From positions 1-47,546 of IMG/VR virus record IMGVR_UViG_3300028534_000006: a DNA stretch of 47,546 nt, one strand, 5' to 3'. Both the position numbers and the translations under genes were made by a program. Of this stretch, positions 1,248 to 47,546 are shown piece by piece. This DNA comes from a virus. Under the pieces are notes generated by a model. It did no database searches. It had not been told where the DNA came from and saw only the letters and a program-made list of their open reading frames with translations. Numbering within the stretch: the stretch's first letter is position 1; every line of letters starts with the position of its first letter.

Positions 1248-1254
1248 TATTTAG

Positions 1255-1272
1255 AGGTCTCGTAGGAGGCCT
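1255..1272 (+). terminator. Stem-loop after the endolysin gene (7-bp stem, GUAG loop, then UUUAUAAU).
   Basis: aggtctc-gtag-gaggcct pairs with one G-U. It lies 8 nt after the stop codon at 1247, and its U-tract is short. Confidence 0.45.
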
Positions 1273-1296
1273 TTATAATACTAATAAAGGATAGGT

Positions 1297-3413: not shown

Positions 3414-3438
3414 ATATAATATCTAAAAGGAGATTTAT

Positions 3439-4113
3439 ATGGGTTTTTGGTCTTCAATAGGCACAGCTGCAGGCCTATTAGTAACTGGCGGTAATCCTGC
3501 TGGCGGAGCTATAGGCGGAGCTATAGGCGGAGCTATAGACAGTAGTGGTAAACAGAAAACACAACTAGATGCTTATACAGCGTATAAATTACAACGTGAG
3601 AAAAAATGGGAGGCTATGTTTGGGCCTATAGAAGAGAACTTAGTGTCTCATTATAACAACTTAAGTGCTACTAGCTATATAGCTAAAGGCAACGAGGCGT
3701 TAGAAAAACAATACACGCAGGCACAGCAACGGCTAAAACAAGAGCTTGCAAACCGCGGTTTAAACCTTGAAGGTGGCATTAGTTTAGGCGCGACAAATAA
3801 TATGTTGCAGAGCTTAGCAAGTAGTAAAGCTGAATTGTATGCGTCTGCGGATGATTACGTAGCTCAGCAACAACAACAATTTTATGCTAGTATGGCAGGT
3901 GCTAAACCTAATGCTGCAAGTGCTGTAAGTGCACAGTCACAACAAGACTTAGCTTGGCAGAAATATAATGATCAGCAAAGTCAAGCCGCTGTAGCAGGAG
4001 TTGTTGATATTTATGACAGATATAACAAATGGAAAATAGATAAAACTAAAACAGATACAAACACAACCACACCTACAGACCCGACTTTAAATTCTACAGG
4101 AGCTACAGGATGA
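3439..4113 (+). CDS. Putative internal virion protein with a Gly-rich N-terminus and Gln-rich centre.
   Basis: Strong RBS AAAGGAG. The N-terminus reads GGNPAGGAIGGAIGGAID, and the protein sits just upstream of the portal. Confidence 0.45.
   Translation: MGFWSSIGTAAGLLVTGGNPAGGAIGGAIGGAIDSSGKQKTQLDAYTAYKLQREKKWEAMFGPIEENLVSHYNNLSATSYIAKGNEALEKQYTQAQQRLKQELANRGLNLEGGISLGATNNMLQSLASSKAELYASADDYVAQQQQQFYASMAGAKPNAASAVSAQSQQDLAWQKYNDQQSQAAVAGVVDIYDRYNKWKIDKTKTDTNTTTPTDPTLNSTGATG
3502..3537 (+). repeat. In-frame 12-bp tandem repeat x3 (ggcggagctata), encoding GGAI x3.
   Basis: Three perfect units read directly from the sequence. Confidence 0.9.
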
Positions 4114-5711: not shown

Positions 5712-7648
5712 TGAAGAGACAAGGTGGTAACTATATTGACGCTCCAAACCTAGGGTCTGGCGAGTCTTTGGCTGCACCTAATAATAGGCTAAGACTTATA
5801 CAAGAATATTTTAAAGAAGCAGTTGATAACTGGGAGCCGTCACATAATGAAGCACAGCTAGTGCTTGATCTGTATGATGATAATCAATATGACGCAAATC
5901 AAATTAATGAACTGCGCCAGTCTGGCAGGCCTATAGAGACATATAACGTCATAAAGAAGTATACTCGTAATCTAGTTGGGTATCTTAGCACTGTAGTCAC
6001 AGATATAAAAATTAAACCGACTAGCTATGATACTATAGATTTTGCTCGTAGATTAGACAGTACCTTGCAATACATTTTAAAGCAAAATCTATGGACTACT
6101 TTGCAAGATGAAATAAATGAGCAAGCAGCTCTTACAGGGCTTACAGCATTCAAGTACTCAATACTTGATACTGGTAAGACAGACTCAGTAGGCCGTAAAA
6201 TTACAGACATACAACTAAAGCTTATACCATCTAAACGTATACTACCGGATATACTTGATGACTCAAATGACTATAGCAAAGCTAGATACACCCATGAATG
6301 GGAATGGCTGCCATATACTGAAATTCAAAAGTTATTTGGTAAGCGCAGAGCCGCAACTTTAGCTAAGCACGGTGATAATAGTATTGGTATGCCATTAGCA
6401 GATATTGAGTCTAACTTTTTAAATATTAGCAAAGGCCGATTTAAACAACAAGATATGTATCTTATTGTAAGATCTGTAGTTCGTAAACCAAACTCTAATA
6501 AGTATATAGATACGTATTGGTGTGGTAATCATATTATATATGAGACAACTATAGACTATATGCCATATAGATGTTTTAGGCTGCATAAAGGTAAGTCTAA
6601 GCCAGAATTCTATGGCATATTCAGAGAGATTATTGAGTCACAGAAAGCTATTAACCAAGCTGTGCTGCAGATACAGCTACTTGTAAATACAAATAAAGTA
6701 TTTGTAGATGAAAATGCTGTTGATGATTTGGACACTTTTGTCACTGAATATAATAGAGTTAATGCTGTAATTCCTATGTTAGATTTAGATGGTTACCGCA
6801 TGGAAAATGTTAACCCAAACATTGTACAGCAGTATCATATTATTGACTCAGCTATACAACGTATACAAGCTATACTTGGTATTAATGATAGTTTTCTTGG
6901 GCTAGCGGCAGCATCAGATAGTGGTAGAAAAGTACAATTACAGCAAAATAGCTCAGTAGTTGCTTTGAGATACTTTACACGACATATAGAGCATATTTAT
7001 AGAACTCTTGGTAAAGACCTTATTACACTAGCTAAGAGATACTTCACAGCACATAGAGTTATGAGGTTACAAGATGAATTAGGTAGAGATAGATGGGCTG
7101 AAGTAAATAAGCCATTTATGATGCCTGAAGATAGGTTAGATTATCAAGGCAATATACAGTGGCGTCCAGTACTTCAACCATTATTAAATGATAATGGTGA
7201 ATTTATACTTAATCCTGACGGCGCTATTCAACATAAAGTAATCAATGAGCCTGACACTGATATATCACCAGATTTTGACGTAGATATTGAAGTAAAAACG
7301 GCTGCTTATGGCGAAAGCGAGGAAGTTGAGCGCGTTATACTTGAGGCTATGATTAACGGTAATCCTGGTATGACTCTTAACCAAGCAAATCCTGTGCTAT
7401 ACTTACGTCTAAATGAAATTTATGCTAAAACACTTAAATCTGAGCACAGCCCAGAGATTGTAGAACTATTCGAATTAGCTCAACAAATGCTTGGCGGCTT
7501 ACCTACTGAAGACCCAAGACAAACTGCGCAAGGCCAAGGCCAAGGGTATAATTTAGGTAATATAAGTGCTAATACAGGTAAATTAACACAAGCAATGGGT
7601 ATTAATAATCAGTATGCACCTGCTGGTTACAATATGAAAAAGGGATAG
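5711..7648 (+). CDS. Portal protein.
   Basis: 645 aa. The N-terminal segment AQLVLDLYDDNQYDANQINELRQSGRPIETYNVIKKYTRNLVGY fits the portal-family pattern (D-x-Q-W/Y ... R-x-x-G-R-P-x-x-T-x-N). Size and neighbourhood are also consistent. Confidence 0.6.
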   Translation: MKRQGGNYIDAPNLGSGESLAAPNNRLRLIQEYFKEAVDNWEPSHNEAQLVLDLYDDNQYDANQINELRQSGRPIETYNVIKKYTRNLVGYLSTVVTDIKIKPTSYDTIDFARRLDSTLQYILKQNLWTTLQDEINEQAALTGLTAFKYSILDTGKTDSVGRKITDIQLKLIPSKRILPDILDDSNDYSKARYTHEWEWLPYTEIQKLFGKRRAATLAKHGDNSIGMPLADIESNFLNISKGRFKQQDMYLIVRSVVRKPNSNKYIDTYWCGNHIIYETTIDYMPYRCFRLHKGKSKPEFYGIFREIIESQKAINQAVLQIQLLVNTNKVFVDENAVDDLDTFVTEYNRVNAVIPMLDLDGYRMENVNPNIVQQYHIIDSAIQRIQAILGINDSFLGLAAASDSGRKVQLQQNSSVVALRYFTRHIEHIYRTLGKDLITLAKRYFTAHRVMRLQDELGRDRWAEVNKPFMMPEDRLDYQGNIQWRPVLQPLLNDNGEFILNPDGAIQHKVINEPDTDISPDFDVDIEVKTAAYGESEEVERVILEAMINGNPGMTLNQANPVLYLRLNEIYAKTLKSEHSPEIVELFELAQQMLGGLPTEDPRQTAQGQGQGYNLGNISANTGKLTQAMGINNQYAPAGYNMKKG

Positions 7649-7649
7649 A

Positions 7650-10600
7650 ATGGAGCAAAACAACGTACTTCCACAAGATGTAAACGATCAGTATACAGTA
7701 CAGCAAGATTATGGTTTTGGTAATAAAGTAGATATAGACCAGCACGGCAATCCTATACAACCGCAACAACAAGTGCAACAAACACCAGAGCAAGATACAG
7801 CGGACGCTTTATATGAAAAAATGTCTAAGTATGACTTTCAAGAAGCCTGGACTAAATATAAAGTATTTAAAGGTACACTGCTTAAAGGTGTGTCAGAAGA
7901 GTTACAGCCATTTGTAGCGGCTAATTTAAATAGTATTGAACAACATTTACGTAACAAGTACCGGGCTAGGCTACGTGCTGAGCTTAAGAAAATACCGTAT
8001 GATAGCTCTGATCGCGCAGAAGCTGAGCAACTATATAGAGACGCTCTACATAGAATGGCTGGTATTATGCCTGCTTCTAAAGTAGATGATTACGTAATTG
8101 ATGCTATAGGTGGCGGCACTATAGCTGCACCATTAAGAGCAGGTAGAATACTATTTAATAGGCTAACTGGTGATACAAAAGAAGCAAATGAATTACAAGT
8201 AGAAGCGAAAGAAATATCTGATGCGCAAAAACAATTTGGTACTGTATCACAAGTAGGTCCGTTAGAAATACCTCTTGATGGTAATATTCCTGCTATGTTT
8301 ATACCATTTAATAGCACAGTACGCGGTTGGACAATGCTAGCGGAAGCTATACAAGCAGATAAAACAGTTAAAGCATTAGGTAAAGCGCAGCCAGTACTTG
8401 ACAAGCTATGGACTGCTGGCAATTTGAGTAAAGTAGGTTTAGCTCGTAATACTGCATTTGGTGCTATGTTTGCGTATGGGTATGGCGCTGACTGGAAAGG
8501 TGCAGTAGTTGGTGGCGTGGCCGGTATGGTTATTCCAGCAGGCGCTTCAGCGATTGGTAAGACAGTCTCGCCCGTAATAACGCACTACTTAGGTACTGAT
8601 TTGGCTAAACAAGAGTTAAATTTAGCTAAGCTAGAGAAATCGGCCGGCGTAACTAAAGATGAGCTTACAACTATTTATAAACAGTATGCAGAGGATGCTA
8701 ATATAGATATGTCTGAGTTGACTCCGGCAGATAAAGCAACTGCTCTAAGAGCTAAATATGATAATATAGATCGCATACTTGCTGCGGCCAGTGAGTACTC
8801 GCCACAAGCACAACGTATTACAGAACAGAAGTCTAAAGAGGCTGTAGTTAAAGTAATGTCTAAACTCTTTGATATTAAACATATAGATGACCCTTCACCG
8901 GCTGGTTTAAAGAAGGCTGCTAAAGAACAAGTAGAAGAGCTTATAGCAGATATGCGCACAGCAATAAATCAAATAACCGATGATATCAGCACATATATAG
9001 CAGACTTTGCGGCTACTTCTAAAAAAGTAAAACTTGATACACCGGTATTTTCAGATGAAATTACTGGTAGTTTACGTAGAGCTATTGATGATATGGACCC
9101 GAAAGAACGTAGAGTATTACGTTCAGTAGAGAAGTTTTTAGACGATAAGCCTAGTATTGACAACTTAGCAGATATAACTAAACTAGAGCGCTTAATACCA
9201 GACAATTTAAAAGCTAGAGCTGAAACTACTAGTGGTATGCCTCTAGAGTCTATGTTTAATGATATTGCGTTTACACACTTAGATGAGTTTGCTTATTCTA
9301 AATACTCTACTATGAAAGATGCTGTTAAATTAAAAGACTGGATGCAAAGTGCCACTGGGCTTAGAACTATATTTAATAGTAATGCACCAACAGAGACAAA
9401 AGCCACTGCTTTACGTAAATTTATGTCTTCAGATAGTTATGCGCCATTAACTAAATTACTATCTGGTAAACAATTAGAGCAACTAGAGGATACTGCTTTT
9501 GCCTCATTATTTACTAAAGATGGTATACTTACTGAAACTGGTAGAGCTAACTTCTGGGCTCTATATAGAGACGCACGTCAAATGCATACAGTTACTGAGC
9601 GCGCAGCGCAAATGAAAGAGTTAATGGCTATGAATGCTAAATATATAGGTAGTAGTAAAATACGCCCTGGCACTAGAACTGAGTATGAGACTGGTAGTAA
9701 AGGTAGATCAAGTATTCAAGAAGAGATGCAGTCAAGGGCTATTGGTCATATTATTGCTTCAGTAATACAGCACTTCCCATTCGACTATGCTAGGCAAACT
9801 TATAATATACGTAATGGCATTAACCTACTTAAAGGTGAAAGAGTTTTTGATGTACGTAGCATAGACGACGCTAGAGTGCTTAGTATTATGGATAAAGCTT
9901 TAACACAGCAAGCAAGAGGTTTACAGGCTCTAAATATAAGTTCTGACTTAACCTACGAACAGTTATTGAGTAAATTGGATAGCGCCTACTTTGATGCTAG
10001 AAGTACTAAGACTACCAGAGCAGCAGCGGAACCTACATTTATGGCTAAAGAAGGCAACACAGATATATATGTACCACATGGTGCTCAAAATGAAGTATTT
10101 AATATACTTAAAACAGATATGAAATTTAATATCAAAAAGCCAGGCGAATATCCATTAAAAGAAGTAGTTCATTCTAAAGCTTTATCAGAGTCTAAAGTAT
10201 GGTCTGATTTGCGTGATTATAAAGTAGTTGTAACGCCTGACTCACCTACTAGGGTTGATGTACACGATAAGAAAATTTATTACAATACCTCAGATGATAA
10301 TGGTAAGCTAGTGCAGGAAATAGCCCATGCTATAGATTATTCAGATGGTAGACGTATAGTAGGTTCATCTGTAGGTATTGAGTGGAAAAATTTACAAAAA
10401 CAATACCCACAATTTGCTGACATATCGCCAGAGTTTATGGCTAATGCTAAGTGGAGTCACCAGTACGCAGTGCTTATGCAGAAATTAGGCGTTACGTCAA
10501 AAGATCAATTGACGCCTGAATTACGTAAACAGTTAAAAGAACTGTCGCCTATGTATAAGTATTTTACAAATGAAGGTGAGATTAGGACACTAGTTGCAGA

Positions 10601-11921
10601 GAAAGGAAATGTTAAAAATAAAGACGAAGTGCTTGAAACTATACGTGGACTTATGCAAAGAGCAGAAGAGTGGTCTGATAAAGCTATAGATGAAGCATTC
10701 AATTACTTAGATAGACAATTTGATGTGTCGGCTAAAGGTAATAAAGTAGATGATACTTATCATGCTGTACAAACTAGAAATTCTAATCCTGCTAATTTTA
10801 CTCAATATGATAATATATTAGCTGACTTAGACATGTTAGTGCTTAATGGTACCAGGAAAATGGACCCTGTGGCTTTGCTAGCATGGCTAAATAAACAAGG
10901 ATATTCAGACAACTACTTAAAAGATATAGGATTTGATGACTTAGTTCTAATGGAAGGCACTAAAGTATCAGTGCCCGCTATTATAACAAGACTAGAAGAC
11001 AAAATGTACTCAGGTAATATGACTAGGACGTACTATGGTACAGAAACACGATTTAGTACTACTATGGATAAAAGCCAACCGTCTAATATTGAGTTGTTAC
11101 CTGCGTTAGAAAATCATTATGAGCGCGTGTTTACTACTGATACTTATGACCTACCTGAGTCTATAACAGAACCTATGGAAACCCACTTTGGCTATTCTGA
11201 CTATAAGTCTCATGCTATATATCGTAATGTTAAATATAATAATGAAAAAGCTGTATATGTACAAGAGTTGCAAAATGACCTACTATCTGCAGGCATGTTT
11301 CCAGATACTGTAGATAAAGCAAAAGCTAAATTAGACAAAGCTATAGCTACAGGTGATGAGCAATTAATTAAGAAAGCTAAACAAGATTATGACTTTGCGG
11401 TAGAAAATGAGCAATTTAAACAGAATCAGTTTGAACGAGAAGATTTAGAAAATGAGCTTGACCGGCTTAACTCTGCTATGCCAAATGAAGACAGTATAGC
11501 GTACTCTGAGTGGGAAGATGAATATATTAATGTGGAACGTCAACTAGCAGAATTAAGTAATGAGAAACCATATGCAACTAAAGATGAAGTACGTAAATAT
11601 GTCGTAGATAAAACAGCTTATATACGTGACGCTATAAATGCTGCTATTAGTGATGCCATGTCTACAGATGCTAGGTATGTAGTACTACCTACTTCAGATG
11701 TAATGATACGTAGATATAATGATGAGCCAGGTAATGCATCTATGTACAAACGGTTGTATGATAAAGACATACCAAAAGTATTACGCAAGTATGCAAAAGC
11801 GCATAATTTAAAGCCGCCGTATAAAGACGGTGAAGTATGGGTTTTAGATATTAAGTCTGTAGCGAACCAAAAACTAGAGAATAAACGTACACAAGCAAAT
11901 GAGTGGTGGTTTAAAATGTAA
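7650..11921 (+). CDS. Very large virion-associated protein (1423 aa), possibly a polyvalent ejected protein.
   Basis: A single uninterrupted ORF directly after the portal. It has a hydrophobic Gly-rich segment (AVVGGVAGMVIPAGASAIG). No catalytic motif could be assigned with confidence. Confidence 0.4.
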   Translation: MEQNNVLPQDVNDQYTVQQDYGFGNKVDIDQHGNPIQPQQQVQQTPEQDTADALYEKMSKYDFQEAWTKYKVFKGTLLKGVSEELQPFVAANLNSIEQHLRNKYRARLRAELKKIPYDSSDRAEAEQLYRDALHRMAGIMPASKVDDYVIDAIGGGTIAAPLRAGRILFNRLTGDTKEANELQVEAKEISDAQKQFGTVSQVGPLEIPLDGNIPAMFIPFNSTVRGWTMLAEAIQADKTVKALGKAQPVLDKLWTAGNLSKVGLARNTAFGAMFAYGYGADWKGAVVGGVAGMVIPAGASAIGKTVSPVITHYLGTDLAKQELNLAKLEKSAGVTKDELTTIYKQYAEDANIDMSELTPADKATALRAKYDNIDRILAAASEYSPQAQRITEQKSKEAVVKVMSKLFDIKHIDDPSPAGLKKAAKEQVEELIADMRTAINQITDDISTYIADFAATSKKVKLDTPVFSDEITGSLRRAIDDMDPKERRVLRSVEKFLDDKPSIDNLADITKLERLIPDNLKARAETTSGMPLESMFNDIAFTHLDEFAYSKYSTMKDAVKLKDWMQSATGLRTIFNSNAPTETKATALRKFMSSDSYAPLTKLLSGKQLEQLEDTAFASLFTKDGILTETGRANFWALYRDARQMHTVTERAAQMKELMAMNAKYIGSSKIRPGTRTEYETGSKGRSSIQEEMQSRAIGHIIASVIQHFPFDYARQTYNIRNGINLLKGERVFDVRSIDDARVLSIMDKALTQQARGLQALNISSDLTYEQLLSKLDSAYFDARSTKTTRAAAEPTFMAKEGNTDIYVPHGAQNEVFNILKTDMKFNIKKPGEYPLKEVVHSKALSESKVWSDLRDYKVVVTPDSPTRVDVHDKKIYYNTSDDNGKLVQEIAHAIDYSDGRRIVGSSVGIEWKNLQKQYPQFADISPEFMANAKWSHQYAVLMQKLGVTSKDQLTPELRKQLKELSPMYKYFTNEGEIRTLVAEKGNVKNKDEVLETIRGLMQRAEEWSDKAIDEAFNYLDRQFDVSAKGNKVDDTYHAVQTRNSNPANFTQYDNILADLDMLVLNGTRKMDPVALLAWLNKQGYSDNYLKDIGFDDLVLMEGTKVSVPAIITRLEDKMYSGNMTRTYYGTETRFSTTMDKSQPSNIELLPALENHYERVFTTDTYDLPESITEPMETHFGYSDYKSHAIYRNVKYNNEKAVYVQELQNDLLSAGMFPDTVDKAKAKLDKAIATGDEQLIKKAKQDYDFAVENEQFKQNQFEREDLENELDRLNSAMPNEDSIAYSEWEDEYINVERQLAELSNEKPYATKDEVRKYVVDKTAYIRDAINAAISDAMSTDARYVVLPTSDVMIRRYNDEPGNASMYKRLYDKDIPKVLRKYAKAHNLKPPYKDGEVWVLDIKSVANQKLENKRTQANEWWFKM

Positions 11922-11947
11922 ATTATTAGACAAATATTAAATATAGG

Positions 11948-12043
11948 TTTTAATTCTAAGGAGTTTTAGGCCTAGGCCCTAGCTAACCCCTTAGATTAAA
12001 ATTTTTGGCCAAATATGGGCTAATATGGACGTCCATATAAGGC
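11948..12043. repeat. Copy A of the three-copy intergenic element (GGCCTAGGCC core plus TATGG repeats).
   Basis: It aligns by eye with 19183-19296 and 32569-32684. It contains the perfect 16-bp palindrome ATATGGACGTCCATAT and lies in the convergent junction between the late block and the minus-strand replication block. Confidence 0.8.
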
Positions 12044-12077
12044 TAAAATCAAATCTATTATAATATAATATTAAGTT

Positions 12078-13319
12078 TCACAAGTAAATTTCCTCATAGT
12101 ACTTACTATTATAATTTTCGCGGTTCTCAGCCACTGTCTTATATACTTGATCACTTATAGCGCCTTTAACTAATGGATAATGCACCACTATTGGGTCTTC
12201 TCTATATAAACCACACTGTCTAGCTCGCCTCTGAATATACTTAACCGTTCTAAAGCTCATGCTATAAACTACTAGTGTATCCATATGAGACAGGTCTACA
12301 CCTTCAGCATATGCGCTACCTTGTAGTATCATAGCCTTAGGAAAAAACTCTCTCAATAGCTCAGCCTCAGCTTGATACTCATGCATAATAACTAGCTTGT
12401 CGCTATCACCAAATGTATCAAGTATCCACTGCGCCTTGAAGGCTATAGATTTTAAAAGTAATGAAACATGGTAAGTCTCACTTTCAGGTATGTATTTTAT
12501 AGTGGCCCCCTCTAGTTGGTGTAGCTTAGTTCTTAGAGACATATCACTATCAGCAAGTATTACATGATTATCTATCTCTAGTACTTTATTACGTTGTAAT
12601 GTATTGTACATTTGCTTGAATACTTCAGGCGGCTCTAAGTAGTGTAATTTATCTGTCGGCTCCTGTGTAAACCCTAACTGAGCTCTTGTATATTTTATAA
12701 ATCCTCTTTCTACGTCAGCAAGTACTAAATCATCTTTTGTCTTAGTACGTATAGTTCTAGGGCCTTGTTTTGTGTATACAATTTCAGGAATACCATAATG
12801 CTCAAACCATTTATAGAAAGTAGTATACTTACGCCAAGGAGACCATGTACACATGTTTATTTGGTTGTATAGCATATAATACCCTTGTGCGCTTGGCGTT
12901 GCTGATATAAATATGATAGGTTTATTTCTCATTACTTGACGCCCTAGCTTAATACGCTCACTCATAGTAGCCCGCTTAGCGCCCTTCTTTTTAGTTCTAG
13001 CTGTACTACCAAAATTATGGGCTTCATCAAGTATCACCATATCATACTTATCACCGTCTACAGTATGTAAACTATCCATGCTAACTATATCATAGTTCTT
13101 AGTTAAAGGCAGATTTTTTAAGTGGTCTTTCCAGCCAGGTATAGCCTTACTTGGGCATATAATTAAGTAGTTCTTATACGCTATGCGCTCACATGCCCAT
13201 AAAGCCATGCCAGATTTTCTAGTACGCTCTTCAGCTACTAAATACGCCCAGCCTAGCTCTTGGAGTATTTCAACTATTTTATTACCTATCTCTTTTTGGT
13301 AGTCTACAAATTCCCACAT
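12078..13319 (-). CDS. SNF2/DEAD-like superfamily 2 helicase.
   Basis: DEAH box (VILDEAHNF), LIICPSKAIPGW, and helicase C-terminal-like motifs (QRRARQ). The ATG at 13319 follows GGAGG and forms a TAATG overlap with the deaminase stop. The track start at 13331 is a TTG. Confidence 0.75.
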   Translation of the reverse strand: MWEFVDYQKEIGNKIVEILQELGWAYLVAEERTRKSGMALWACERIAYKNYLIICPSKAIPGWKDHLKNLPLTKNYDIVSMDSLHTVDGDKYDMVILDEAHNFGSTARTKKKGAKRATMSERIKLGRQVMRNKPIIFISATPSAQGYYMLYNQINMCTWSPWRKYTTFYKWFEHYGIPEIVYTKQGPRTIRTKTKDDLVLADVERGFIKYTRAQLGFTQEPTDKLHYLEPPEVFKQMYNTLQRNKVLEIDNHVILADSDMSLRTKLHQLEGATIKYIPESETYHVSLLLKSIAFKAQWILDTFGDSDKLVIMHEYQAEAELLREFFPKAMILQGSAYAEGVDLSHMDTLVVYSMSFRTVKYIQRRARQCGLYREDPIVVHYPLVKGAISDQVYKTVAENRENYNSKYYEEIYL

Positions 13320-13744
13320 TAGTGCCTCCAATTATGAACTACTGTCACACCATTAGCTGTTAAATACATTAAACCTTTAGAACCAGTACTTGTTAAATTA
13401 GTATAATATACATACTTTATACCTGCTTTAACTAGCTCTTTAGCACAGTTTATGCATGGCGCATGAGTTACATAGGCCGAGCATGCTACTACTGATATAC
13501 CATAAGACTTAGCCATACGTAGAGCATTAATCTCCGCATGTACAACACCAGGCAACGTCTCGCCATGTTCATCTTCACATATATTGTCGACTCCTGGCTC
13601 TGTGCCGTTATATCCAGTAGCAATAATACGTCGGTCACATACTAAAACACAACCTACTTTATGTCGTTTACAGTATGATAACTTCGCTACTTCTTCCGCT
13701 ATATTACCATATGCAATATCAAATCTATTCAAAACTAAACTCAT
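13319..13744 (-). CDS. dCMP deaminase (cytidine/deoxycytidylate deaminase zinc-binding family).
   Basis: HAEINAL ... PCINCAKELVKAGIKYVYY is the H-A-E / P-C-x-x-C zinc signature with the typical dCMP deaminase context (GYNG). Confidence 0.85.
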   Translation of the reverse strand: MSLVLNRFDIAYGNIAEEVAKLSYCKRHKVGCVLVCDRRIIATGYNGTEPGVDNICEDEHGETLPGVVHAEINALRMAKSYGISVVACSAYVTHAPCINCAKELVKAGIKYVYYTNLTSTGSKGLMYLTANGVTVVHNWRH

Positions 13745-14076: not shown

Positions 14077-15313
14077 TATCAAACTCCTGCTTATCTTCAC
14101 GTATACACTTAAATACAGGTATAGTTACAGAGCCATCGTCAGTAATTTCATTGTACGTAAGCTCTATAACTTTACCTATTACAGGCTCACGCCAATATTG
14201 CTCTCGTTGAAAATCTGTAAAACCTGTGCCTACTCTAAATTCTAACTGCTTATCATTATAAGTAGCCACGCATATAAATGCACCAAGTCTGCCTGCATGT
14301 TTACCTTCACCTTCAACTATATCTACAATCTTAGCATCTAAAGTTTTAGCTTCTTTAAAACGCATCCAGTCCCAACTACGTTTAAATGAGAACTTATGAT
14401 TTTTAGGTTTTACAACTATGCCTTCAAAGCCTGCGGCTAACTCTTTAGTTAGAAATTCTTGTACATCTTCTTTAGTTGAGCCCTCTTCCATATGTATAGG
14501 AGACATCCAGTCAAAGTTCATAGCTGCAGCAATTGAACGTAGGGATCGTTTGTAGTATGGTGTATTGCACTTTTTAGTTTCCCACTCTTCTTTTGTTAAG
14601 TAATCAAATACTTTAAACTTTAGTTCCTGGCGTTCACTCGCTGTAGCTGTGCCTACTCTACACTTAGTGCATATACCTTGTGTAATTGTGCGTTCACCTA
14701 GTTTACCACACTTAACTATAGCCTCAGTAACTAGTACGCCACCAAAATTAACATCACGTATGTCCTGGCTGTACTCAGGTAAATGTAACTCTTCACCATT
14801 TCTTGTAAAGAACCTATCACCTATAATGTATACATTATTACCATCATACTTACGCTCCATATAAAACTCAGATGGTAACTTACTATAGTCTAAGTCTTTC
14901 GCCTTTTGAACTAGGAACTCAGTTATAAAAGGCTCGCCAAGAGCTGCATTTATAGTTTTAGCGCCTAGAGCTACTCCAGGTATACGACGATTGAAAATTG
15001 AATACGCAATAATACCGTATTCTTTCAGTAAATACTCACAAGTCTCTCTATGGGCATCAGAGCGTGTTTTACTACGTAAGTTTTGCAGTGTATGAAATAA
15101 TAAAGTGCAATCATTATTTATATTTACACGCAGCGCATCAAAGTCTTTCTTATTTACTTTAAAGTTATACTTATAAGTAATAGTATCAAATGTATACTTT
15201 AAAAATTTTTTAACTGACTCTGAGTTTATATGCTGTTTAACTACTGATTTCAAAGCAATAGCACCACTAGCGTTGTGTGCTACGTTTATAAAAGCCATAA
15301 TGTCTTTACACAT
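14069..15313 (-). CDS. ATP-dependent DNA ligase.
   Basis: Adenylation motif I K-x-D-G (ERKYDGNNV), motif IV-like FEGIVVK, and motif V-like WMRFKEAK. C-terminal OB-like region. The RBS AAAGGAG precedes the start. Confidence 0.8.
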   Translation of the reverse strand: MCKDIMAFINVAHNASGAIALKSVVKQHINSESVKKFLKYTFDTITYKYNFKVNKKDFDALRVNINNDCTLLFHTLQNLRSKTRSDAHRETCEYLLKEYGIIAYSIFNRRIPGVALGAKTINAALGEPFITEFLVQKAKDLDYSKLPSEFYMERKYDGNNVYIIGDRFFTRNGEELHLPEYSQDIRDVNFGGVLVTEAIVKCGKLGERTITQGICTKCRVGTATASERQELKFKVFDYLTKEEWETKKCNTPYYKRSLRSIAAAMNFDWMSPIHMEEGSTKEDVQEFLTKELAAGFEGIVVKPKNHKFSFKRSWDWMRFKEAKTLDAKIVDIVEGEGKHAGRLGAFICVATYNDKQLEFRVGTGFTDFQREQYWREPVIGKVIELTYNEITDDGSVTIPVFKCIREDKQEFDNG

Positions 15314-15684
15314 TAGAACTCCTTTCCGTGCTTATATGGTCGCGAGGCATTTAGTTCTGATTTCCATGCTAACTGAGTCTCTATATCTATACCCATAAAT
15401 CCTATTAAATCCATCAGTCTAAGAAGTGTGTCCGCTAGTTCATCTTCAAAAGTGTCTTTCTCACGTAGACCGTACTTATCTTTACGCATTGCCTCAACTG
15501 CTTCACCAACTTCAGACATAATTAGTGCTAGTCGTGTTGCTATAGCGTTATTGTATAATTCTTGATTAAAGTCAGTGTCTGTCTCTACATACTTCATATC
15601 GTCCCAAAAACCTTTTTTAAGCATATTTTTATTATGCTCGTGGCATGCTTTATTAAACCCCTCTGGCAATGTGGCAAATTTCAT
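15313..15684 (-). CDS. MazG-like nucleoside triphosphate pyrophosphohydrolase.
   Basis: MSEVGEAVEAMRK ... EDELADTLLRLMDL matches the E-x-x-E ... E-x-x-D all-alpha MazG signature. Confidence 0.75.
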   Translation of the reverse strand: MKFATLPEGFNKACHEHNKNMLKKGFWDDMKYVETDTDFNQELYNNAIATRLALIMSEVGEAVEAMRKDKYGLREKDTFEDELADTLLRLMDLIGFMGIDIETQLAWKSELNASRPYKHGKEF

Positions 15685-16267: not shown

Positions 16268-17050
16268 TTATGCCTTTAGTTTAAATTTTATTACAGGTTC
16301 ATGCTGATAGTCATACACTCGTAAATCATCAGGTCTAAATAAACCTGTATATGTATACTCATACTTTGGTGGTGTATGCATAGGCCTGTTTAAATATGTA
16401 TATGCATCGTCAAAATGCTCTTTATAGATATGAGTATCAGCTAGTACTAGTTGTACTGAGCCTACTTTTAAATCAGCAGCCGCTGCTATATACAGTAGCA
16501 TTGCTGACGCAAATATAGCGTCTGATGGTAGGCCCACCATAGTGTCCACACTTCTCTGATACCATATCATATGTACTCTGTCGTTATTATCAACGTAAAA
16601 CTGATACAATAAATGACAGCAAGGTAAACTAAGATCTCTACTACTTGGGTCCCACCCAGTAATAATATGGCGCCTGTCCATAGGTCTATATCGTAAGCTG
16701 TCAAGTAGTTGCTCCATTTGATTTATACCGTGAAAGTCATACCACTTATTACCGTAGTCTACTCTAATACTACCATCTTCATCAGCCCAGTCTTTCCAAT
16801 AATTACAGCCCCACTTCTCAAAATCGTTTATATGCTTTGGCTGCCTAAGCATTGCTGCCAACTCACCAAGTACACCTTTGTAAAACATCTTACGGCCTGT
16901 AAGTACTGGTATATACCCTGCCGATAAATCAAATGTTATACCGGCACCAAATATTGCTTTTGTTACACCATTACGTGTATGACGTGTTTCACCGTGCTGC
17001 AAAACATGCTGAACTAAATTTCTATAATGCGCTTCAAATGCTACTGCCAT
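16268..17050 (-). CDS. ThyA-family pyrimidine C5 (hydroxy)methylase with Asp at the Asn177-equivalent position. I predict it acts on dCMP.
   Basis: It aligns without gaps to E. coli ThyA from YQRS to DTH. Conserved features are LPCCH (catalytic Cys), DRRH, YWKDWADEDG, YGNKW and ADTHIY. The specificity position reads GLPSDAI instead of GLPFNIA (Asp177, GAC at 16520-16522). Confidence 0.7.
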   Translation of the reverse strand: MAVAFEAHYRNLVQHVLQHGETRHTRNGVTKAIFGAGITFDLSAGYIPVLTGRKMFYKGVLGELAAMLRQPKHINDFEKWGCNYWKDWADEDGSIRVDYGNKWYDFHGINQMEQLLDSLRYRPMDRRHIITGWDPSSRDLSLPCCHLLYQFYVDNNDRVHMIWYQRSVDTMVGLPSDAIFASAMLLYIAAAADLKVGSVQLVLADTHIYKEHFDDAYTYLNRPMHTPPKYEYTYTGLFRPDDLRVYDYQHEPVIKFKLKA

Positions 17051-17370
17051 TAAAAATCCTTCTGTACAATATTATGCCATTCATCTATAGTATCATCTTG
17101 TTCAAGCCAAATGAGAAAAGCCAAATTAGTTATTGCATGTGATAAATGTGATAACCCTGACTCTCTATCAGTTAACTCACCAGCACGCCATGCTTCTAAA
17201 TGGCGATATAATGCATCTAAGTACCTATTTTCAGCGTCTTCAACTAACTGCCAGTTGTTAGGACCATACTTCTCAGCACCAAAAGTAAGTACTTTAGCCA
17301 TTTCTCTTGTAACTACAGGCGGGATTAACCCATACCGTAGTTTGCCTTTATCGTATTTAATACCTTCCAC
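17050..17370 (-). CDS. All-alpha dNTP pyrophosphohydrolase of the dATP/dGTP diphosphohydrolase (MazZ-like, DUF5664) family.
   Basis: DKGKLRYGLIPP...VLTFGAEKYGPNNW...RHLEAW..GE..D.ESGLSHLSHAITNLAFL matches my recollection of this phage family. GTG start after AAGGAG. Confidence 0.6.
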   Translation of the reverse strand: MEGIKYDKGKLRYGLIPPVVTREMAKVLTFGAEKYGPNNWQLVEDAENRYLDALYRHLEAWRAGELTDRESGLSHLSHAITNLAFLIWLEQDDTIDEWHNIVQKDF

Positions 17371-19131: not shown

Positions 19132-19162
19132 ATTATATCGAAATAAGTTTAGACTAACATTA
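19132..19162 (-). promoter_or_regulatory. Phage-consensus promoter (TAATGTTAGTCTAAAC-N6-CGATATAAT).
   Basis: Read on the minus strand. It is a member of the nine-copy family and lies about 50 nt upstream of the start codon at 19082. Confidence 0.65.
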
Positions 19163-19182
19163 AAAAGAAATTAAATAAGATT

Positions 19183-19296
19183 AAACTAAGTTTAAATATA
19201 AATTTTAATTTTAAGGCCAATTAGGCCTAGGCCCTAGCCAACCCCTTAGATTAAATTTTTTGATCGATATGGGCTGATATGGAAGTCCTATGGGTA
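19183..19296. repeat. Copy B of the three-copy intergenic element.
   Basis: It shares 54 bp of perfect identity with copy C (aaactaagtttaaatataaattttaattttaaggccaattaggcctaggcccta). This is followed by ccccttag and TATGG x3 at 10-11 nt spacing. Confidence 0.85.
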
Positions 19297-19306
19297 ATAT
19301 TTTTTA

Positions 19307-19513
19307 TTACCCTAATAATTTATTTTGAATGTCTTTGTACTTAAGTTTATTTTGTGCTAACTTATAGCCAATCTGTACGCCTGCTTCTAGCGCGGCTTCT
19401 GTAAGCACACGTATATCGGCCGGTAGTTCCCTTGAGTCTAGTATCTGTGTAATAACTAAATCTACATCTTGCTTTGTGCGTATTTCCATTTCAGCTAAAT
19501 TAGAATGTTTCAT
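19307..19513 (-). CDS. Hypothetical protein (68 aa).
   Basis: The ORF follows the DNA polymerase gene with its own RBS (AAGGAGAAATATG). No motif recognised. Confidence 0.6.
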   Translation of the reverse strand: MKHSNLAEMEIRTKQDVDLVITQILDSRELPADIRVLTEAALEAGVQIGYKLAQNKLKYKDIQNKLLG

Positions 19514-22207: not shown

Positions 22208-22433
22208 TGCATTACTCCTAATATTCGCTTTGCGATAAATTAGCGGTGGCTAGGAATTGCACCTAGCGCGCATAAACGCCACGCCATAGCTATGCACCGC
22301 ATAAACAATGACCGGCCAAAAGGAATGCGAAAGGCCGGCCACAGCTAAAGGAAAGTGATAAATCACACTCAAAAGACACAAGACTTACTTGGAAGGTTGT
22401 TTATGCTCAGCTAGTGACTAGCTAGCTGAATAA
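22208..22433 (-). promoter_or_regulatory. G+C-richer structured leader or ncRNA candidate upstream of the SSB gene.
   Basis: The 10-nt stretch 22397-22406 is complementary to 22299-22308, with a competing copy near 22268-22277. There are hairpins at 22312-22338 (GC-only), 22250-22266 and 22409-22423. I found no ORF and no consensus promoter. Confidence 0.4.
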
Positions 22434-22451
22434 AGCACCCCGTAGGATGCT
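22434..22451 (-). terminator. Intrinsic terminator after the 203-aa gene (stem with a UACG tetraloop, then UUUAUU).
   Basis: The minus-strand RNA reads AGCAUCC-UACG-GGGUGCU UUUAUU and starts 12 nt after the stop codon. Confidence 0.6.
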
Positions 22452-22462
22452 CTATCAACCAA

Positions 22463-23100: not shown

Positions 23101-23150
23101 TTATAGACTTCGCCCATATTCAAACTTATAGACTTCGCCCATATTCAAAA
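23101..23150 (-). repeat. 25-bp tandem repeat x2 in the predicted 5' leader of the 203-aa gene.
   Basis: ttatagacttcgcccatattcaaa(c/a) occurs twice back to back, between the -10 box (23154-23162) and the RBS. Confidence 0.9.
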
Positions 23151-30870: not shown

Positions 30871-30897
30871 AGCAAGTAATAATAACTATTACTTGCT
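30871..30897 (+). terminator. Intrinsic terminator of the early plus-strand unit (11-bp perfect stem).
   Basis: agcaagtaata-ataac-tattacttgct followed by gcttatt. It starts 7 nt after the stop codon. Confidence 0.6.
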
Positions 30898-31530: not shown

Positions 31531-31585
31531 TTTTGTATCCTTTTTAGTGTGATTTTTGATTGTTTCAGATTAATGATTATTTAAA

Positions 31586-31601
31586 CAACACTTGACAATT
31601 T
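31586..31601. repeat. Right arm of the 16-bp inverted repeat.
   Basis: caacacttgacaattt. It overlaps tandem TTGACA hexamers (31593-31598 and 31605-31610). Confidence 0.9.
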
Positions 31602-31824
31602 TATTGACAATGATAAATTAAAGAACAATTATATATAAAAAATAAGTTTAAATTTTATATATAAATAAATTATATATATTCTTATTTTTTATATAATAAT
31701 ATTATAGCATAAATTATATTAAATTTATATTAATTCGCTGCATAAATATATAAATAAATTAAATATATTCGTTACTTATTTTAAATTTTATTTAAATTTC
31801 TGTATTAATACTAATCTATTTATT

Positions 31825-31856
31825 TAATCGAATTTTAATAATAATTATGATATAAT
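31825..31856 (+). promoter_or_regulatory. Promoter-like site inside the AT-rich non-coding region (TAATCGAATTTTAATA-N7-TGATATAAT).
   Basis: The extended -10 is perfect and the upstream 16-mer matches the family consensus at 10 of 16 positions. It points toward the tandem repeats at 32121-32390. Confidence 0.35.
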
Positions 31857-31871
31857 GCAAATATTTAAATA

Positions 31872-31953
31872 AATATTAAATAAATAAATTAGTGTCGATA
31901 TTTAAGATTAAATTAATATACATAAAATTAATATTAAATAAATAAATTAGTGT
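31872..31953 (+). repeat. 24-bp AT-rich direct repeat x2 (aatattaaataaataaattagtgt) with a 58-bp period.
   Basis: The copies are at 31872-31895 and 31930-31953, and each is followed by (c/a)(g/a)atatttaa. Confidence 0.85.
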
Positions 31954-32120
31954 AAATATTTAATATTTGTTTAATAATAAGGCTATTTTAATCTGCAATA
32001 ATAATTAAAATAGTGAAGCTATTTAAATAAATTTAAGGTGGCTATCTTAATTAATTAAATATACCCCCAGGGTGCATCAAAAAATTAAATATGCTGCGAC
32101 CGGCCGAGGTTTACCGAGGC

Positions 32121-32390
32121 GCCACCACGAAAAATTTTTCATAGCTTTTTATTATAGGTAAGATTTTTCTTACCTGCCTCACTATAAATGCCACCGCAAA
32201 AAATTTTTCATAGCTTTTTATTATAGGTAAGATTTTCTACCTAACTCACTATAAATGCCACCAGCTGCTATTGCTTTTTATTATAGGTAAGGTTTTCTTA
32301 CCTAACACTATAAATAATAATGCAGTATATAAATATGTCACCACGAAAAATTTTTCATAGCTTTTTATTATAGGTAAGATTTTTCTTGCC
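32121..32390 (+). repeat. Four tandem direct repeats of about 67-80 bp. Each has GCCACC, an A5T5 palindrome, and an AGGTAAG-N6-CTTACCT hairpin.
   Basis: The units start at 32121, 32190, 32257 and 32337. The shared core is catagctttttattataggtaagatttttcttacct..cactataaat. Unit 3 lacks the gaaaaatttttc palindrome. Confidence 0.9.
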
Positions 32391-32568
32391 ATTTTTGTTT
32401 TTCATATAAATACTGTATATGTTTTTGTAGCGCAGTATTAAGTGCATAAGTAATAGTAGTATCAATACATTTACCTATAGCCATTTTACCATTACGTACG
32501 ACGTCTTTACGAATTAGGTAGGTAATAGGCAGCGTATATAATATTTTTCCGGTAATTTTAGAAAGTTT

Positions 32569-32684
32569 AAACTAAGTTTAAATATAAATTTTAATTTTAA
32601 GGCCAATTAGGCCTAGGCCCTATAAAACCCCTTAGTTGAGCTTAGTTTGGCCAATACGGGCCCATTTTGAAGTCCTATGGGCTA
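32569..32684. repeat. Copy C of the three-copy intergenic element (right half degenerate).
   Basis: Its left 54 bp are identical to copy B. It begins about 25 nt beyond the stop codon of the large terminase gene. Confidence 0.85.
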
Positions 32685-32709
32685 TATATAAATTTTTTTA
32701 TTATATCAA

Positions 32710-34332
32710 TTATATCCCACCTGCCCGTTTAAGTCGTCGACGGCGTGCCTCTATAGTTTTACGACGTTGTTTTATGCTAGCATTGCTTTTTTCCGAAGTA
32801 TCGATTACTTTACGCTTTTTAGTATGCTTGAGCCCCATTACACCAGTTCTTAGAGCATCAGCCATATGCGACCAAAAGTTGTGCTTTGGTGTAGTTTTTG
32901 CTAGTTGTAGTTTTTCGTCCCATTCCTTCACATAGTTGATGAGCATTTTACGCACCATTGTACAACTCTCATCAATTTGTGTGACTGGTAAGTACTGTCT
33001 GACTCTGTCGATACCGTCCATAAGGCCAGATCTCTTCACTACTTCTACGCGGAAACCTTCCTCTATAAATGCCTGCTTCCTGGTTTTCTTGTCATTTAGC
33101 GAGCGGACCATAGCATCGTGTGGTAAGTACACCTTCTCAATTTCCCATTCTCGACGACGCATAAGATCACAATAATAAGGAATAGCCTCGTCTGAGGCGT
33201 AATCTTCGCCGATAATACGCAAGTCATCACCTACTTCTTGTAGGTAAACAACACAAAATAGGTCTGTTTCTGAGATGCCCAAGTCAACAGCAGCGTAGAC
33301 AGGCAGCGCTGGCTCATAAAGCCCCTTAACAATGCCACCGCGCTGCTCAATAAAGTGGAGGTACTTGGCGTAAAACGATAGTTCGAGGGCTGCTTGGAAG
33401 GCCTCATCGGCGGTAGTTGGGTACTCTTTTGTAATTCGTGGCCCCAATCTACGCTTCTTGGCAATGTAGAAGTTTTTCTTGCGTTGATCGGTGATGCCGT
33501 GCCGTATAAAATATAACTCCTCCTCCTTGGTGCAAGGCTGATACACGTCGTTGACGCAGTCTGGGTCGTCAACCCACGATAAAAATATAGGCAAAAAATC
33601 TTCAGGTGAGCGCTGCTCATCAGGTATACTTGTGGCCTCATCCCACATAGCCTTAAATTTATCTTCGCCTTCAGCTGTTGACTCAATACAAATATTATTA
33701 CCGCGCCGTGGGGCGCATGCCTCTAGTGAGCCAGATATAATCTCATGGGCTTTGTCCGGATACTTACTTGCCGTCTTACCAAATTCAGATACGTGGAGGT
33801 CGTGCAGAGTGGCAGATCTGAACGACGTACGAATGTAAATATTACTATCATTGCTAAATGCCTGCTTGGTGGTGCTATCGGCAACACGCTCAAGGCCACC
33901 CAAAGCGTACATTTTGTAGTTGTCGTCCAAATTTTCCCATAATCTCTTGACGCGTTCAAGCAGTGTGGCTGATTCCTCACGGCCTTGGGCCTGCATACCA
34001 ACAGTGAAGTGCGGTATGTGTATGGCATCATCAAAGTAGTCAACTAAATAGTACGTGCTTATACCACGCTGGCGCGATTTGAGGATTAGCTGGCGGCCAT
34101 GTGTCTGGCGCTTACTGTACACCTCTAGTTGGGCTTCATTCATAATAAATGGGACGAGCTGACCCTCTTTATTAACAACTTTGTACAGATTATTTAGGCG
34201 CCACAACTTACTTGGAGCATAATTTTTGAGCATGTCATCAAAATTATCAGGCTCAGTGTAAAAAACCCACAAATAATCTTTTACTTGCGGCACTAGCTCA
34301 ACTAGTCGATCTTGTGAGACGCTCATAGCCAT
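32710..34332 (-). CDS. terL: Terminase large subunit.
   Basis: Walker A-like LILKSRQRGIST and Walker B-like LHDLHVSEFG. C-terminal RNaseH-like nuclease motifs AAVDLGISETD and VYLPHDA. The ATG at 34332 lies 1 nt after the terS stop. The track start at 34404 would overlap terS by 71 nt. Confidence 0.85.
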   Translation of the reverse strand: MAMSVSQDRLVELVPQVKDYLWVFYTEPDNFDDMLKNYAPSKLWRLNNLYKVVNKEGQLVPFIMNEAQLEVYSKRQTHGRQLILKSRQRGISTYYLVDYFDDAIHIPHFTVGMQAQGREESATLLERVKRLWENLDDNYKMYALGGLERVADSTTKQAFSNDSNIYIRTSFRSATLHDLHVSEFGKTASKYPDKAHEIISGSLEACAPRRGNNICIESTAEGEDKFKAMWDEATSIPDEQRSPEDFLPIFLSWVDDPDCVNDVYQPCTKEEELYFIRHGITDQRKKNFYIAKKRRLGPRITKEYPTTADEAFQAALELSFYAKYLHFIEQRGGIVKGLYEPALPVYAAVDLGISETDLFCVVYLQEVGDDLRIIGEDYASDEAIPYYCDLMRRREWEIEKVYLPHDAMVRSLNDKKTRKQAFIEEGFRVEVVKRSGLMDGIDRVRQYLPVTQIDESCTMVRKMLINYVKEWDEKLQLAKTTPKHNFWSHMADALRTGVMGLKHTKKRKVIDTSEKSNASIKQRRKTIEARRRRLKRAGGI

Positions 34333-34789: not shown

Positions 34790-34897
34790 ATCTACCTCAT
34801 CATGCATTAGAATATAAAACATTATATAGCAATACTTGTCAAGCTTACTTTAAATATAAATTTTAATAATATAATTTAATATTCGTTTAAGCTAATT

Positions 34898-47508: not shown

Positions 47509-47546
47509 ACCATTATTAGTAATGTTAGCCGTGTCATTAGTTGCTA
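47420..47546. repeat. Second copy of the 127-bp terminal overlap.
   Basis: Identical by eye to 1-127. Confidence 0.95.

Follow-up and report, generated by a model that had tools for sequence, protein, structure and literature searches.

Our question is what a non-coding sequence module does that stands, always in the same orientation, behind three minus-strand gene blocks of a phage genome. The window, that is the whole stretch of DNA analyzed (47,546 nt, positions 1 to 47,546 of IMG/VR record IMGVR_UViG_3300028534_000006), contains three copies of this ∼120-nt module (A, B and C), a composite of 120–160 nt, and a small clade of related phages carries it at the same places. Tentatively, and at a little under an even chance, we read the module as a bidirectional intrinsic-terminator core, ancestral at a convergent gene junction and copied to two further operon ends, which is combined with factor-binding boxes.

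Three copies of one module at operon ends

A profile calculated from eight copies finds the module at exactly three places in the window, all in the same orientation, and repeat finding and alignment agree with this result.

11906..12068, minus strand: copy A, whole module (nhmmer E = 5.5e-33)
19167..19312, minus strand: copy B, whole module (nhmmer E = 6.7e-37)
32545..32709, minus strand: copy C, whole module (nhmmer E = 2e-34)

Copies B and C are identical over 56 bp (19181–19236 = 32567–32622), and copy A matches both exactly over 16–18 bp (TTAGGCCTAGGCCCTA[GC]). A Logan contig from a separate sequencing run (SRR8439170) is 100% identical to the window over 9388 nt and ends within the 56 bp common to B and C. 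As an independent contig would be expected to break within a real repeat, we regard the repeat as true and not as an assembly artefact.

The modules follow the stop codons of minus-strand genes at distances of 34 nt (copy A, stop at 12078–12080), 10 nt (copy B, 19307–19309) and 25 nt (copy C, 32710–32712). The gene blocks that end there are, respectively, the block of an SNF2-like helicase, the block of PolA and a 68-amino acid (aa) open reading frame (ORF), and terS-terL. Between the convergent genes at copy A the gap of 156 nt is entirely taken up by the module, which abuts the stop codon (11919–11921) of a plus-strand 1423-aa ORF. Copy B is located between the stop codon of the 68-aa ORF, behind PolA, and the next canonical minus-strand promoter.

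19132..19162, minus strand: canonical promoter after copy B, TAATGTTAGTCTAAAC-N7-GATATAAT, from the promoter motif scan

The same arrangement, with a promoter directly after the module, is repeated in the related loci L008, L009 and L010, and the promoter at 19162–19132 is predicted from its motif to restart minus-strand transcription after copy B.

Copy C, after the terL stop codon, borders a 1-kb non-coding repeat region (31531–32566). This region is AT-rich and contains 52-nt repeats (at 32123, 32192 and 32339), each with a small hairpin and a T-run, as well as many inverted AT-rich repeats. Relatives have tandem repeats of their own at the same place (L047, 11800–11900; L048, 11780–11860; L009, 1422–2963; L050, from 7570 onward); those of L009 extend over ∼1 kb and are of the CAGCTAAC/CAGTCAA type, and L048 and L049 differ in repeat number. 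The repeat region beside copy C is a candidate origin or packaging region. At 7310–7345 of L050 a canonical promoter directly follows the terL stop codon and points through two CCCATATTAAAATAAT repeats into the terL module copy. Judged by its motif, it would yield a non-coding transcript of ∼170 nt, or a transcript feeding the region beyond.

The divergent promoter region contains a partial fourth copy, immediately preceding the probable promoter of terS-terL and upstream of the plus-strand late operon.

34841..34867, minus strand: partial fourth copy, in which 24/27 nt of AT block and flank match copies B and C (family D6)

This piece is not conserved in the relatives. We rejected a function as a shared late promoter, as the piece is unconserved there and the late operon has a canonical promoter like the other units.

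A sequence-only reading of the window had placed three same-orientation copies at the 3′ ends of minus-strand gene blocks. Its coordinates correspond to the inner parts of the full modules, and the placement is borne out by the promoter directly after copy B and by the positions kept in every relative recovered. The long exact identity of B and C and the location shortly after minus-strand stop codons stand as well, with 56 bp in place of 54 and with measured distances of 10–34 nt in place of 15–30. The fourth AT-rich piece reported at 34849–34867 is real and extends over 34841–34867.

Anatomy of the module

On the minus strand the module reads, in this order, box array, A-run, GC-rich core and AT block.

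11937..11961, minus strand: AT block of copy A, reading CCTTAGAATTAAAACCTATATTTAA
11960..11994, no strand assigned: GC-rich core of copy A, containing GGCCTAGGCC; with its AT-rich flanks (∼11949–12001) it gives a stem of ∼17 bp on either strand
12002..12006, plus strand: T5 run of copy A, directly after the stem; an A-run on the minus strand
12010..12043, no strand assigned: box array of copy A; on the minus strand ATATGGAC and GTCCATAT join into a 16-bp perfect palindrome and are followed by GCCCATAT
19192..19216, minus strand: AT block of copy B, reading CCTTAAAATTAAAATTTATATTTAA, as in copy C, the SNF2 copy of L008 and the terL copy of L046
19215..19249, no strand assigned: GC-rich core of copy B, GGCCAATTAGGCCTAGGCCCTAGCCAACCCCTTAG, folding no better than shuffles
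19256..19261, plus strand: T6 run of copy B; A6 on the minus strand
19266..19296, no strand assigned: three boxes of copy B, TATGG at 19268, 19278 and 19289 on the plus strand, CCATA on the minus strand, 10–11 nt apart
32578..32602, minus strand: AT block of copy C, identical to that of copy B
32601..32635, no strand assigned: GC-rich core of copy C, with no T-run after it
32650..32684, no strand assigned: degenerate boxes of copy C, on the minus strand GCCCATAGGACTTCAAAATGGGC; GCCCAT and ATGGGC can pair

The AT block comprises 25 nt (CCTTAAAATTAAAATTTATATTTAA on the minus strand) and is followed by TTTAAT-like words ∼11 nt apart. The core has the minus-strand pattern AGGGG-N6-8-CTAGGGCC(C)TAG and contains loop-less palindromes, with GGCCTAGGCC at 11969, 19224 and 32610. 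The A-run (CAAAAAA on the minus strand) is the complement of the plus-strand T-run. The boxes are ∼8 nt long and spaced by 10–12 nt; their form in the window is (G/T)(T/C)CCATAT, and an inverted box gives rise to dyads. The 10-bp palindrome had been correctly assigned to all copies by the earlier reading, which had also listed three TATGG boxes per copy, 10–12 nt apart, and a T-run in A and B. Three such boxes are found in copy B; copy A has TATGG at 12014 and 12024 together with TATAAGG at 12036, and copy C retains one intact TATGG (32676), the other two having degenerated to TACGG and TTTGA. The T-runs exist as T5 and T6; their placement on the plus strand and their possible role in terminating the late operon at copy A had been missed. 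Also overlooked were that the AT block is the best conserved part, that the boxes are phage-specific, have a 10–12-nt period and are partly dyad, and that copy A abuts a plus-strand stop codon.

The box motif recurs in opposite orientation, as had been noted before, in two further repeats.

23101..23150, plus strand: two exact 25-bp repeats with the box motif (GACTTCGCCCATAT) in opposite orientation (family D15)

These repeats are absent from the relatives. They are located within the first ∼50 transcribed nt of a 203-aa gene, just past the promoter at 23185–23154, an operator-like position. We considered the 203-aa protein, whose gene carries the box repeats in its 5′ untranslated region, as a binder of the boxes and rejected it: it belongs to no family, its AlphaFold model has a pLDDT (predicted local distance difference test) of 66, and no fold match was obtained. 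That the GGCC-rich core is an island of avoided restriction sites was likewise ruled out, as GGCC is not avoided (81 sites seen, 55 expected).

Conservation in related phages

PolA and TerL searches returned a small clade of metagenomic contigs, and the module profile was run on the stretches fetched from them. As the earlier reading had proposed, a search of related phages recovers the element, and it does so at the same three places. PolA and TerL of the carriers are 41–55% and 67–86% identical to those of the window, respectively.

Module after PolA: L008, L009, L010
Module after SNF2: L008, L009, L010, L044
Module after terL: L046, L047, L048/L049, L050

L009 and L050 are parts of one contig, L010 and L047 parts of another, and each of these two phages has all three copies. 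By profile, no other copy was detected in the window or in the fetched parts of the related contigs. In L044, the most distant carrier (PolA 41%), the module is found only at the convergent junction, and the PolA gene is directly followed by the next gene. No copy was detected in L051, a terL contig from the same sample as L044, nor in L045, a contig from a Sulfurimonas metagenome-assembled genome (PolA 34%), whose distant PolA match is the sole hint at a host. Eighty IMG/VR terL loci (TerL ≤43% identity, except for L065, which is part of the contig of L010) gave no profile match, the diverged terL copy on L065 lying below the reach of the profile. Neither BLASTN of the PolA region against INPHARED nor a single-protein PolA scan of IMG/VR returned close relatives.

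Scans of viral, metagenome and genome collections with exact patterns (GC core, AT block and the core of the L008 type) yielded chance matches only, within the limits that the patterns are exact, that the profile covers only a ∼30-nt pattern in those matches, and that the host is not identified. On that evidence the module belongs to this clade as a signal; it is no generic repeat of the host, which was the objection that the sequence-only reading had raised against itself.

The best conserved part is the AT block, not the palindrome or the boxes. It is identical at 25/25 positions in copies B and C, the SNF2 copy of L008 and the terL copy of L046, although PolA of L008 is just 55% identical to that of the window. 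The boxes behave differently: they are uniform within a genome and differ between genomes, with CCATAT in the window and L008, CCAGAT in L009 and another set in L010, and have only ATGGAC-like cores in common. Dyads such as ATGGAC|GTCCAT are found among the boxes. The box regions of the L046 terL copy and copy C cannot be aligned despite a TerL identity of 86%. In the SNF2 copy of L009 the box array flanks the core on both sides as a perfect 23-nt inverted repeat, and L010 has boxes on both sides as well. We found no extra clusters of box words outside the modules of the relatives. The copies of one genome evolve in concert, as seen in the 56-bp identity of B and C and in the nearly identical PolA and SNF2 copies of L010; we propose gene conversion, a shared co-evolving partner, or both, as the cause.

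Proposed termination at the modules

In the reading we favor, the core, composed of A-run, GC-rich hairpin and T/A-rich tail, would act on the host RNA polymerase as a terminator or insulator that is largely bidirectional. It would originally have served as a terminator between the plus-strand late structural operon and the minus-strand replication/nucleotide-metabolism operon. In one subclade the module would have been copied to the ends of the PolA block and of the terL unit, where it would form a divider between the upstream unit and what follows, either the next promoter or the non-coding region resembling an origin or packaging site. The box array, on the upstream, minus-strand side, would most likely bind a co-evolving phage-encoded factor that acts as a roadblock or as a termination modulator. 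The sequences directly show the repeat, with its anatomy, position, conservation and concerted evolution. Termination at the modules is what we infer here; the role assigned to the boxes and to the invariant AT block is speculative.

This reading is supported by the occurrence of the modules at the same three places in relatives and by the strongest hairpins being located at the convergent junction. The convergent-junction copy is probably the ancestral one, as L044, the most distant carrier, has the module only there and L051 has none. Over a trimmed stretch of 75 nt, copy A folds with a minimum free energy (MFE) of -21.0 kcal/mol on the minus and -18.1 kcal/mol on the plus strand (z -4.4 and -2.3, respectively; z -2.8 and -2.3 against dinucleotide shuffles).

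MFE (minus/plus strand) of copy A: -21/-18
MFE of the L009 SNF2 copy: -53/-53
MFE of the L010 SNF2 copy: -24/-22
MFE of the L044 SNF2 copy: -13/-21

On the plus strand, a run of T4–6 is found close after the hairpin in copies A and B and in most PolA and SNF2 copies of the relatives. The plus strand of the L009 SNF2 copy has U5 two nt past the stem. In the L044 SNF2 copy a 16-bp stem is followed by U5 on the plus strand, and on the minus strand the AT block sets in precisely where the stem has its 3′ foot; by its sequence this is the textbook case, a bidirectional terminator whose two tails are just the A-run and the AT block. The layout of A-tract, hairpin and T-tract between convergent genes is shared by copy A and the SNF2 copies of L009 and L044, and the T-run and hairpin of copy A are predicted to form a good terminator for the convergent plus-strand late operon. 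An A-tract/hairpin/U-tract between convergent genes, T50 of phage LUZ7, is a documented bidirectional phage terminator (PMC10204088). At operon ends, long stems can be important for resistance to antitermination (PMC10325885), a point that by analogy may apply to the SNF2 copies with their very long stems.

Several results weigh against this reading. Copies B and C are not located between convergent genes. Folded over the whole element, they do not surpass dinucleotide shuffles (z -0.4 to -0.9), copy A alone being clearly better than shuffles, and over the trimmed stretch they reach an MFE of -13 to -21; hairpins are generally weaker at the PolA and terL copies than at the convergent junction. 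RNAalifold returned no consensus helix for eight copies, nor a helix beyond three GC pairs. A simple terminator pattern scan flags none of the three copies of the window, and a home-made terminator scan of both strands of 14 copies revealed no consistent canonical terminator. It is the minus strand that decides for B and C, and there the tail after the hairpin begins with A (UAAAAUUAAAAUUU; the tail sequence is UAAAAUUAAAAUUUAUAUUU, A-rich at its start), unlike a classical U-tract. No T-run is present on the plus strand of copy C and the other terL copies, the L010 SNF2 copy has none close after its plus-strand stem, and the hairpin of the L008 SNF2 copy is weak (-11). The closing pair AAGG/CCTT is present in 8/8 copies and, as both of its sides are invariant, is uninformative either way. 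Within one phage we find one possible compensatory change, at the stem foot (AAATTA/TAATTT in the PolA copy of L009, AAACTA/TAGTTT in the terL copy of L050).

Two ordinary, compact terminators are present in the same genome, so that a composite of 120 nt exceeds what termination needs.

31100-31070, minus strand: ordinary compact terminator with a 13-bp stem and T6, ending a 134-aa HNH/Lar-like gene
30871-30897, plus strand: ordinary compact terminator, ending the small plus-strand early unit

Unit ends without the three-copy module thus exist in the early region. A terminator function would leave unexplained a 25-nt AT block that is identical between phages with 55% PolA identity; nor would termination alone account for boxes that are specific to each phage, follow a helical period and are in part dyad-symmetric. 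The invariant AT block and the phage-specific, periodic and partly dyad boxes together suggest sequence-specific recognition, for which duplex DNA is a likelier target than RNA, and strong hairpins restricted to the convergent junction, in the absence of a consensus RNA structure, leave room for a role at the DNA level. It is possible, though we consider it a minority view, that the module is the recognition site of a phage-encoded, rapidly co-evolving factor, which would bind the boxes, and perhaps the palindrome and the AT block, and control the three operon ends by regulated termination or antitermination, as a polar roadblock, or through transcription-fed replication initiation or nicking. 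Such a dedicated boundary system has not been described for phages of this kind.

Alternative explanations

A related proposal, which we judge unlikely, is a duplex-DNA site complex of iteron-like boxes, a GC palindrome and an AT-rich block for unwinding or recognition, bound by a phage protein and serving as a secondary replication origin fed by transcription, as a polar barrier to replication or transcription, or as a strand-specific nicking site. The helical box period of 10–12 nt, the occurrence of boxes in both orientations (dyads, the inverted arrays of the L009 SNF2 copy, both sides in L010) and the inverted box motif in the first transcribed bases of the 203-aa gene, where it resembles an operator, fit such a complex, as do an AT block with every base invariant, which suggests sequence-specific recognition, and a core that, as a loop-less palindrome (CTAGGGCCCTAG or GGCCTAGGCC), makes a poor RNA hairpin and for which a consensus RNA structure was not found. 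The canonical promoter of L050 lies ∼110 nt upstream of its module and points into it, and copy C borders a repeat-rich region resembling an origin or packaging site. However, Pfam and PHROG scans and a fold search returned no candidate binding protein, the small ORFs being without family matches; GC skew just mirrors gene orientation; and the 25-bp repeats at 23101–23150 are absent from relatives. Three origins or barriers placed exactly at operon ends are less economical than terminators, and the strongest hairpins are found where a bidirectional terminator is needed. An RNA processing or stability element of the minus-strand transcripts, comparable to the RNase III sites of T7 or to bacterial repetitive extragenic palindromic (REP) sequences, appears quite unlikely to us. 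Here the 3′ ends of the upstream mRNAs would be set by a long imperfect AU/GC helix, either through its cleavage or because it stops 3′–5′ exonucleases. The uniform orientation and the intergenic 3′ location agree with this, and long imperfect helices between the A-run side and the AT block are possible (17 bp in copy A; also in the L009 PolA, L050 terL and L010 SNF2 copies), with a second hairpin often present in the box regions (L008 SNF2, -17; L046 terL, -20; L044 SNF2). Yet the helix register is not conserved, no covariation is detectable, B and C are no more stable than shuffles, and the invariant AT block and the phage-specific boxes would go unexplained.

The sequence-only reading had suggested Rho-dependent termination, in which the CCAUA boxes form a C-rich Rho utilization (rut) site on the minus-strand RNA and the hairpin a pause site, and had named a binding array and a processing site, both considered above, as alternatives. 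We find this very unlikely. C exceeds G in copy B (12:4), in the PolA and SNF2 copies of L008 (11:4 and 11:5) and in the terL copy of L050 (12:4), YC dinucleotides occur about every 11 nt, and the operon-end location is suitable; but the box stretch measures ∼40 nt compared with the roughly 60–80 nt of unstructured, C-rich, G-poor RNA that define a rut site, and C is not clearly in excess in copies A (10:8) and C (10:9) or in the terL copies of L046 (11:15) and L048 (7:8). Several box regions are self-complementary and hence not unstructured, and boxes flank the core on both sides in the L009 SNF2 copy and in L010. Boxes that differ between phages and are uniform within a genome argue for a specific partner instead of a compositional signal. 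We give very little credence to a plus-strand small-RNA gene, with the AT block (which has TATAAAT) as promoter, the GC core as a hairpin RNA of ∼55 nt and the T-run as terminator. The plus-strand order of AT block, hairpin and T-run would fit, the AT block is the most conserved part, and the plus-strand late operon is preceded by a partial copy of it. All eight recognizable phage promoters, however, share a different and very uniform motif, and the -10-like hexamers of the AT block are weak; the terL copies have no T-run, the putative RNA varies freely between phages, the fourth AT copy is not conserved, and no Rfam match was obtained. A selfish or neutral repeat, that is a functionless remnant resembling a miniature inverted-repeat transposable element and homogenized by gene conversion, is hardly credible. 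It would account for the concerted evolution of the copies in each genome and for their palindromic character, but synteny of the three sites holds in all relatives, over PolA identities of 50–55%, and the AT block is under strong purifying selection. We found neither a transposase nor copies elsewhere (window, fetched contigs, pattern scans), and no target duplications were seen in the sequences read, the insertion sites being syntenic and not variable.

Promoters, gene units and side observations

Eight promoters with a very uniform 30-nt motif, TAATGTTAGTTTAAGC-N6-9-(G)ATATAAT, serve early, replication and structural units and are conserved in the relatives. The terS-terL unit seems to have a different promoter (TGCTATATAAT, ∼34805–34815).

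19162, 23185, 25771 and 29213, minus strand: promoters of the uniform motif
29429, 29797, 30431 and 34898, plus strand: promoters of the uniform motif

The window corresponds to a circularly assembled, complete phage genome of ∼47.4 kb (37% GC; true size ∼47,419 bp). Positions 1–127 are identical to 47420–47546; as the source is a circular MEGAHIT k141 contig of 47,560 nt, we take this end repeat to be what is left of a 141-nt overlap, as opposed to a terminal repeat of the physical genome. Among cultured phages, Pseudoalteromonas phage PH1 and Vibrio phage VPMS1 have the most similar TerL (∼40% identity). GC skew tracks gene orientation, nothing more.

34960 to the end and on through 1-11921, plus strand: structural operon, with portal, internal virion protein and the 1423-aa ORF
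29166-12078, minus strand: replication/nucleotide-metabolism region, with primase-helicase, UvrD-like helicase, T7-type single-stranded DNA-binding protein (SSB), PolA, 5′–3′ exonuclease and MazZ-like protein, and further with ThyA, MazG, ligase, endonuclease, dCMP deaminase and SNF2-like helicase
34822-32710, minus strand: terS-terL
29.4-31.5 kb, both strands: small early region

The SNF2-like gene upstream of copy A has SNF2 and helicase Pfam matches. The 1423-aa ORF (7650–11921, plus strand), the last gene of the late operon, gave no Pfam, PHROG or PDB sequence match; large genes occupy the same place in relatives (1520 aa in L010). The ORF searches revealed neither a phage RNA polymerase nor a regulator. 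A scan of the window for tRNA and tmRNA genes returned none, and an Rfam scan returned nothing at gathering score and, at E values up to 5, two chance matches, both outside the modules.

Genes for a dCMP deaminase, MazG-like and ThyA-like proteins and a MazZ-like dGTP diphosphohydrolase N-domain (13319–13744, 15313–15684, 16268–17050 and 17050–17370, respectively) form a set kept in all relatives, which suggests a modified base in the phage DNA; among the ORFs searched, none is PurZ-like. The minus-strand spacer between the 203-aa gene and the T7-type SSB gene (22208–22462; 180–255 nt across phages) is GC-richer and folds far better than shuffles (MFE -90.9, z -4.1). It is found at the same place in L008 (4638–4860), L009 (9123–9320) and L010 (3584–3763), with sequence conservation only in the last small hairpin before the ribosome-binding site (YCGCWAWGCGR), and may be a structured leader or a non-coding RNA.

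Comparison with known systems

Phage terminators are usually short, idiosyncratic hairpins. In this clade a single composite signal has been retained at the ends of three operons, always the same ones, in phages whose proteins are down to ∼50% identity. One block of the composite is frozen base for base, and the copies of another change together in any one genome. Should a phage factor bind the boxes, the module would be a compact case of operon boundaries controlled in a sequence-specific manner by a phage using host RNA polymerase, and insulator parts might be derived from it; if termination is all it does, it would still help to annotate transcription units in an uncultured clade.

Like T50 of LUZ7, copy A and the SNF2 copies of the relatives combine A-tract, hairpin and T-tract in a short convergent gap, for both strands. 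Here, however, the terminator-like core is one part of a 120–160-nt composite, which also comprises a box array and the invariant AT block of 25 nt, and this composite is repeated at two co-directional operon ends, where the hairpins of B and C are weak. The terminators characterized in the LUZ7 study “do not share conserved sequences”, in contrast to the module, whose sequence is conserved between phages (PMC10204088). We found no described equivalent of the module in the literature.

REP sequences and bacterial interspersed mosaic elements are imperfect GC-rich palindromes in an AT-richer context, located 3′ in extragenic regions and forming composites with other motifs, and have been proposed to protect mRNA 3′ ends, to terminate transcription or to bind proteins. 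The module shares palindrome, context, 3′ position and composite nature with them, but has only three copies at fixed, syntenic phage sites, with chance matches only in the exact scan of genome contigs and no RAYT-type transposase present. T7-like phages use intergenic RNase III sites and a few terminators at class boundaries (TE, Tphi). As with the module, these are few, sequence-related intergenic signals that are oriented with transcription and bound expression units, and the phage described here has a T7-type replication module (SSB, PolA, exonuclease, ligase). It differs in that no phage RNA polymerase was found in Pfam/PHROG scans of the window ORFs and that the module has no conserved double-stranded RNA geometry; sequence similarity to the T7 signals was not looked for.

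Origins composed of iterons and an AT-rich stretch (such as lambda ori) and operator arrays form another class for comparison. The module likewise has short repeats of helical period, varying between phages as if co-evolving, beside an AT block and a palindrome, which is a resemblance only: its copies are dispersed over three operon ends, its AT block is invariant in sequence and not merely AT-rich, and no initiator was identified. The stoperators of cluster-A mycobacteriophages are single 13-bp sites, present in 20–30 copies and bound by the immunity repressor of a temperate phage, which block elongation. As short, asymmetric intergenic sites that are oriented with transcription and bound by a phage protein they are akin to the module, which differs in consisting of three 120-nt composites, in a genome where the searched ORFs yielded neither a repressor nor an integrase. 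Set beside these systems, the module is unusual, yet it is not a new kind of system.

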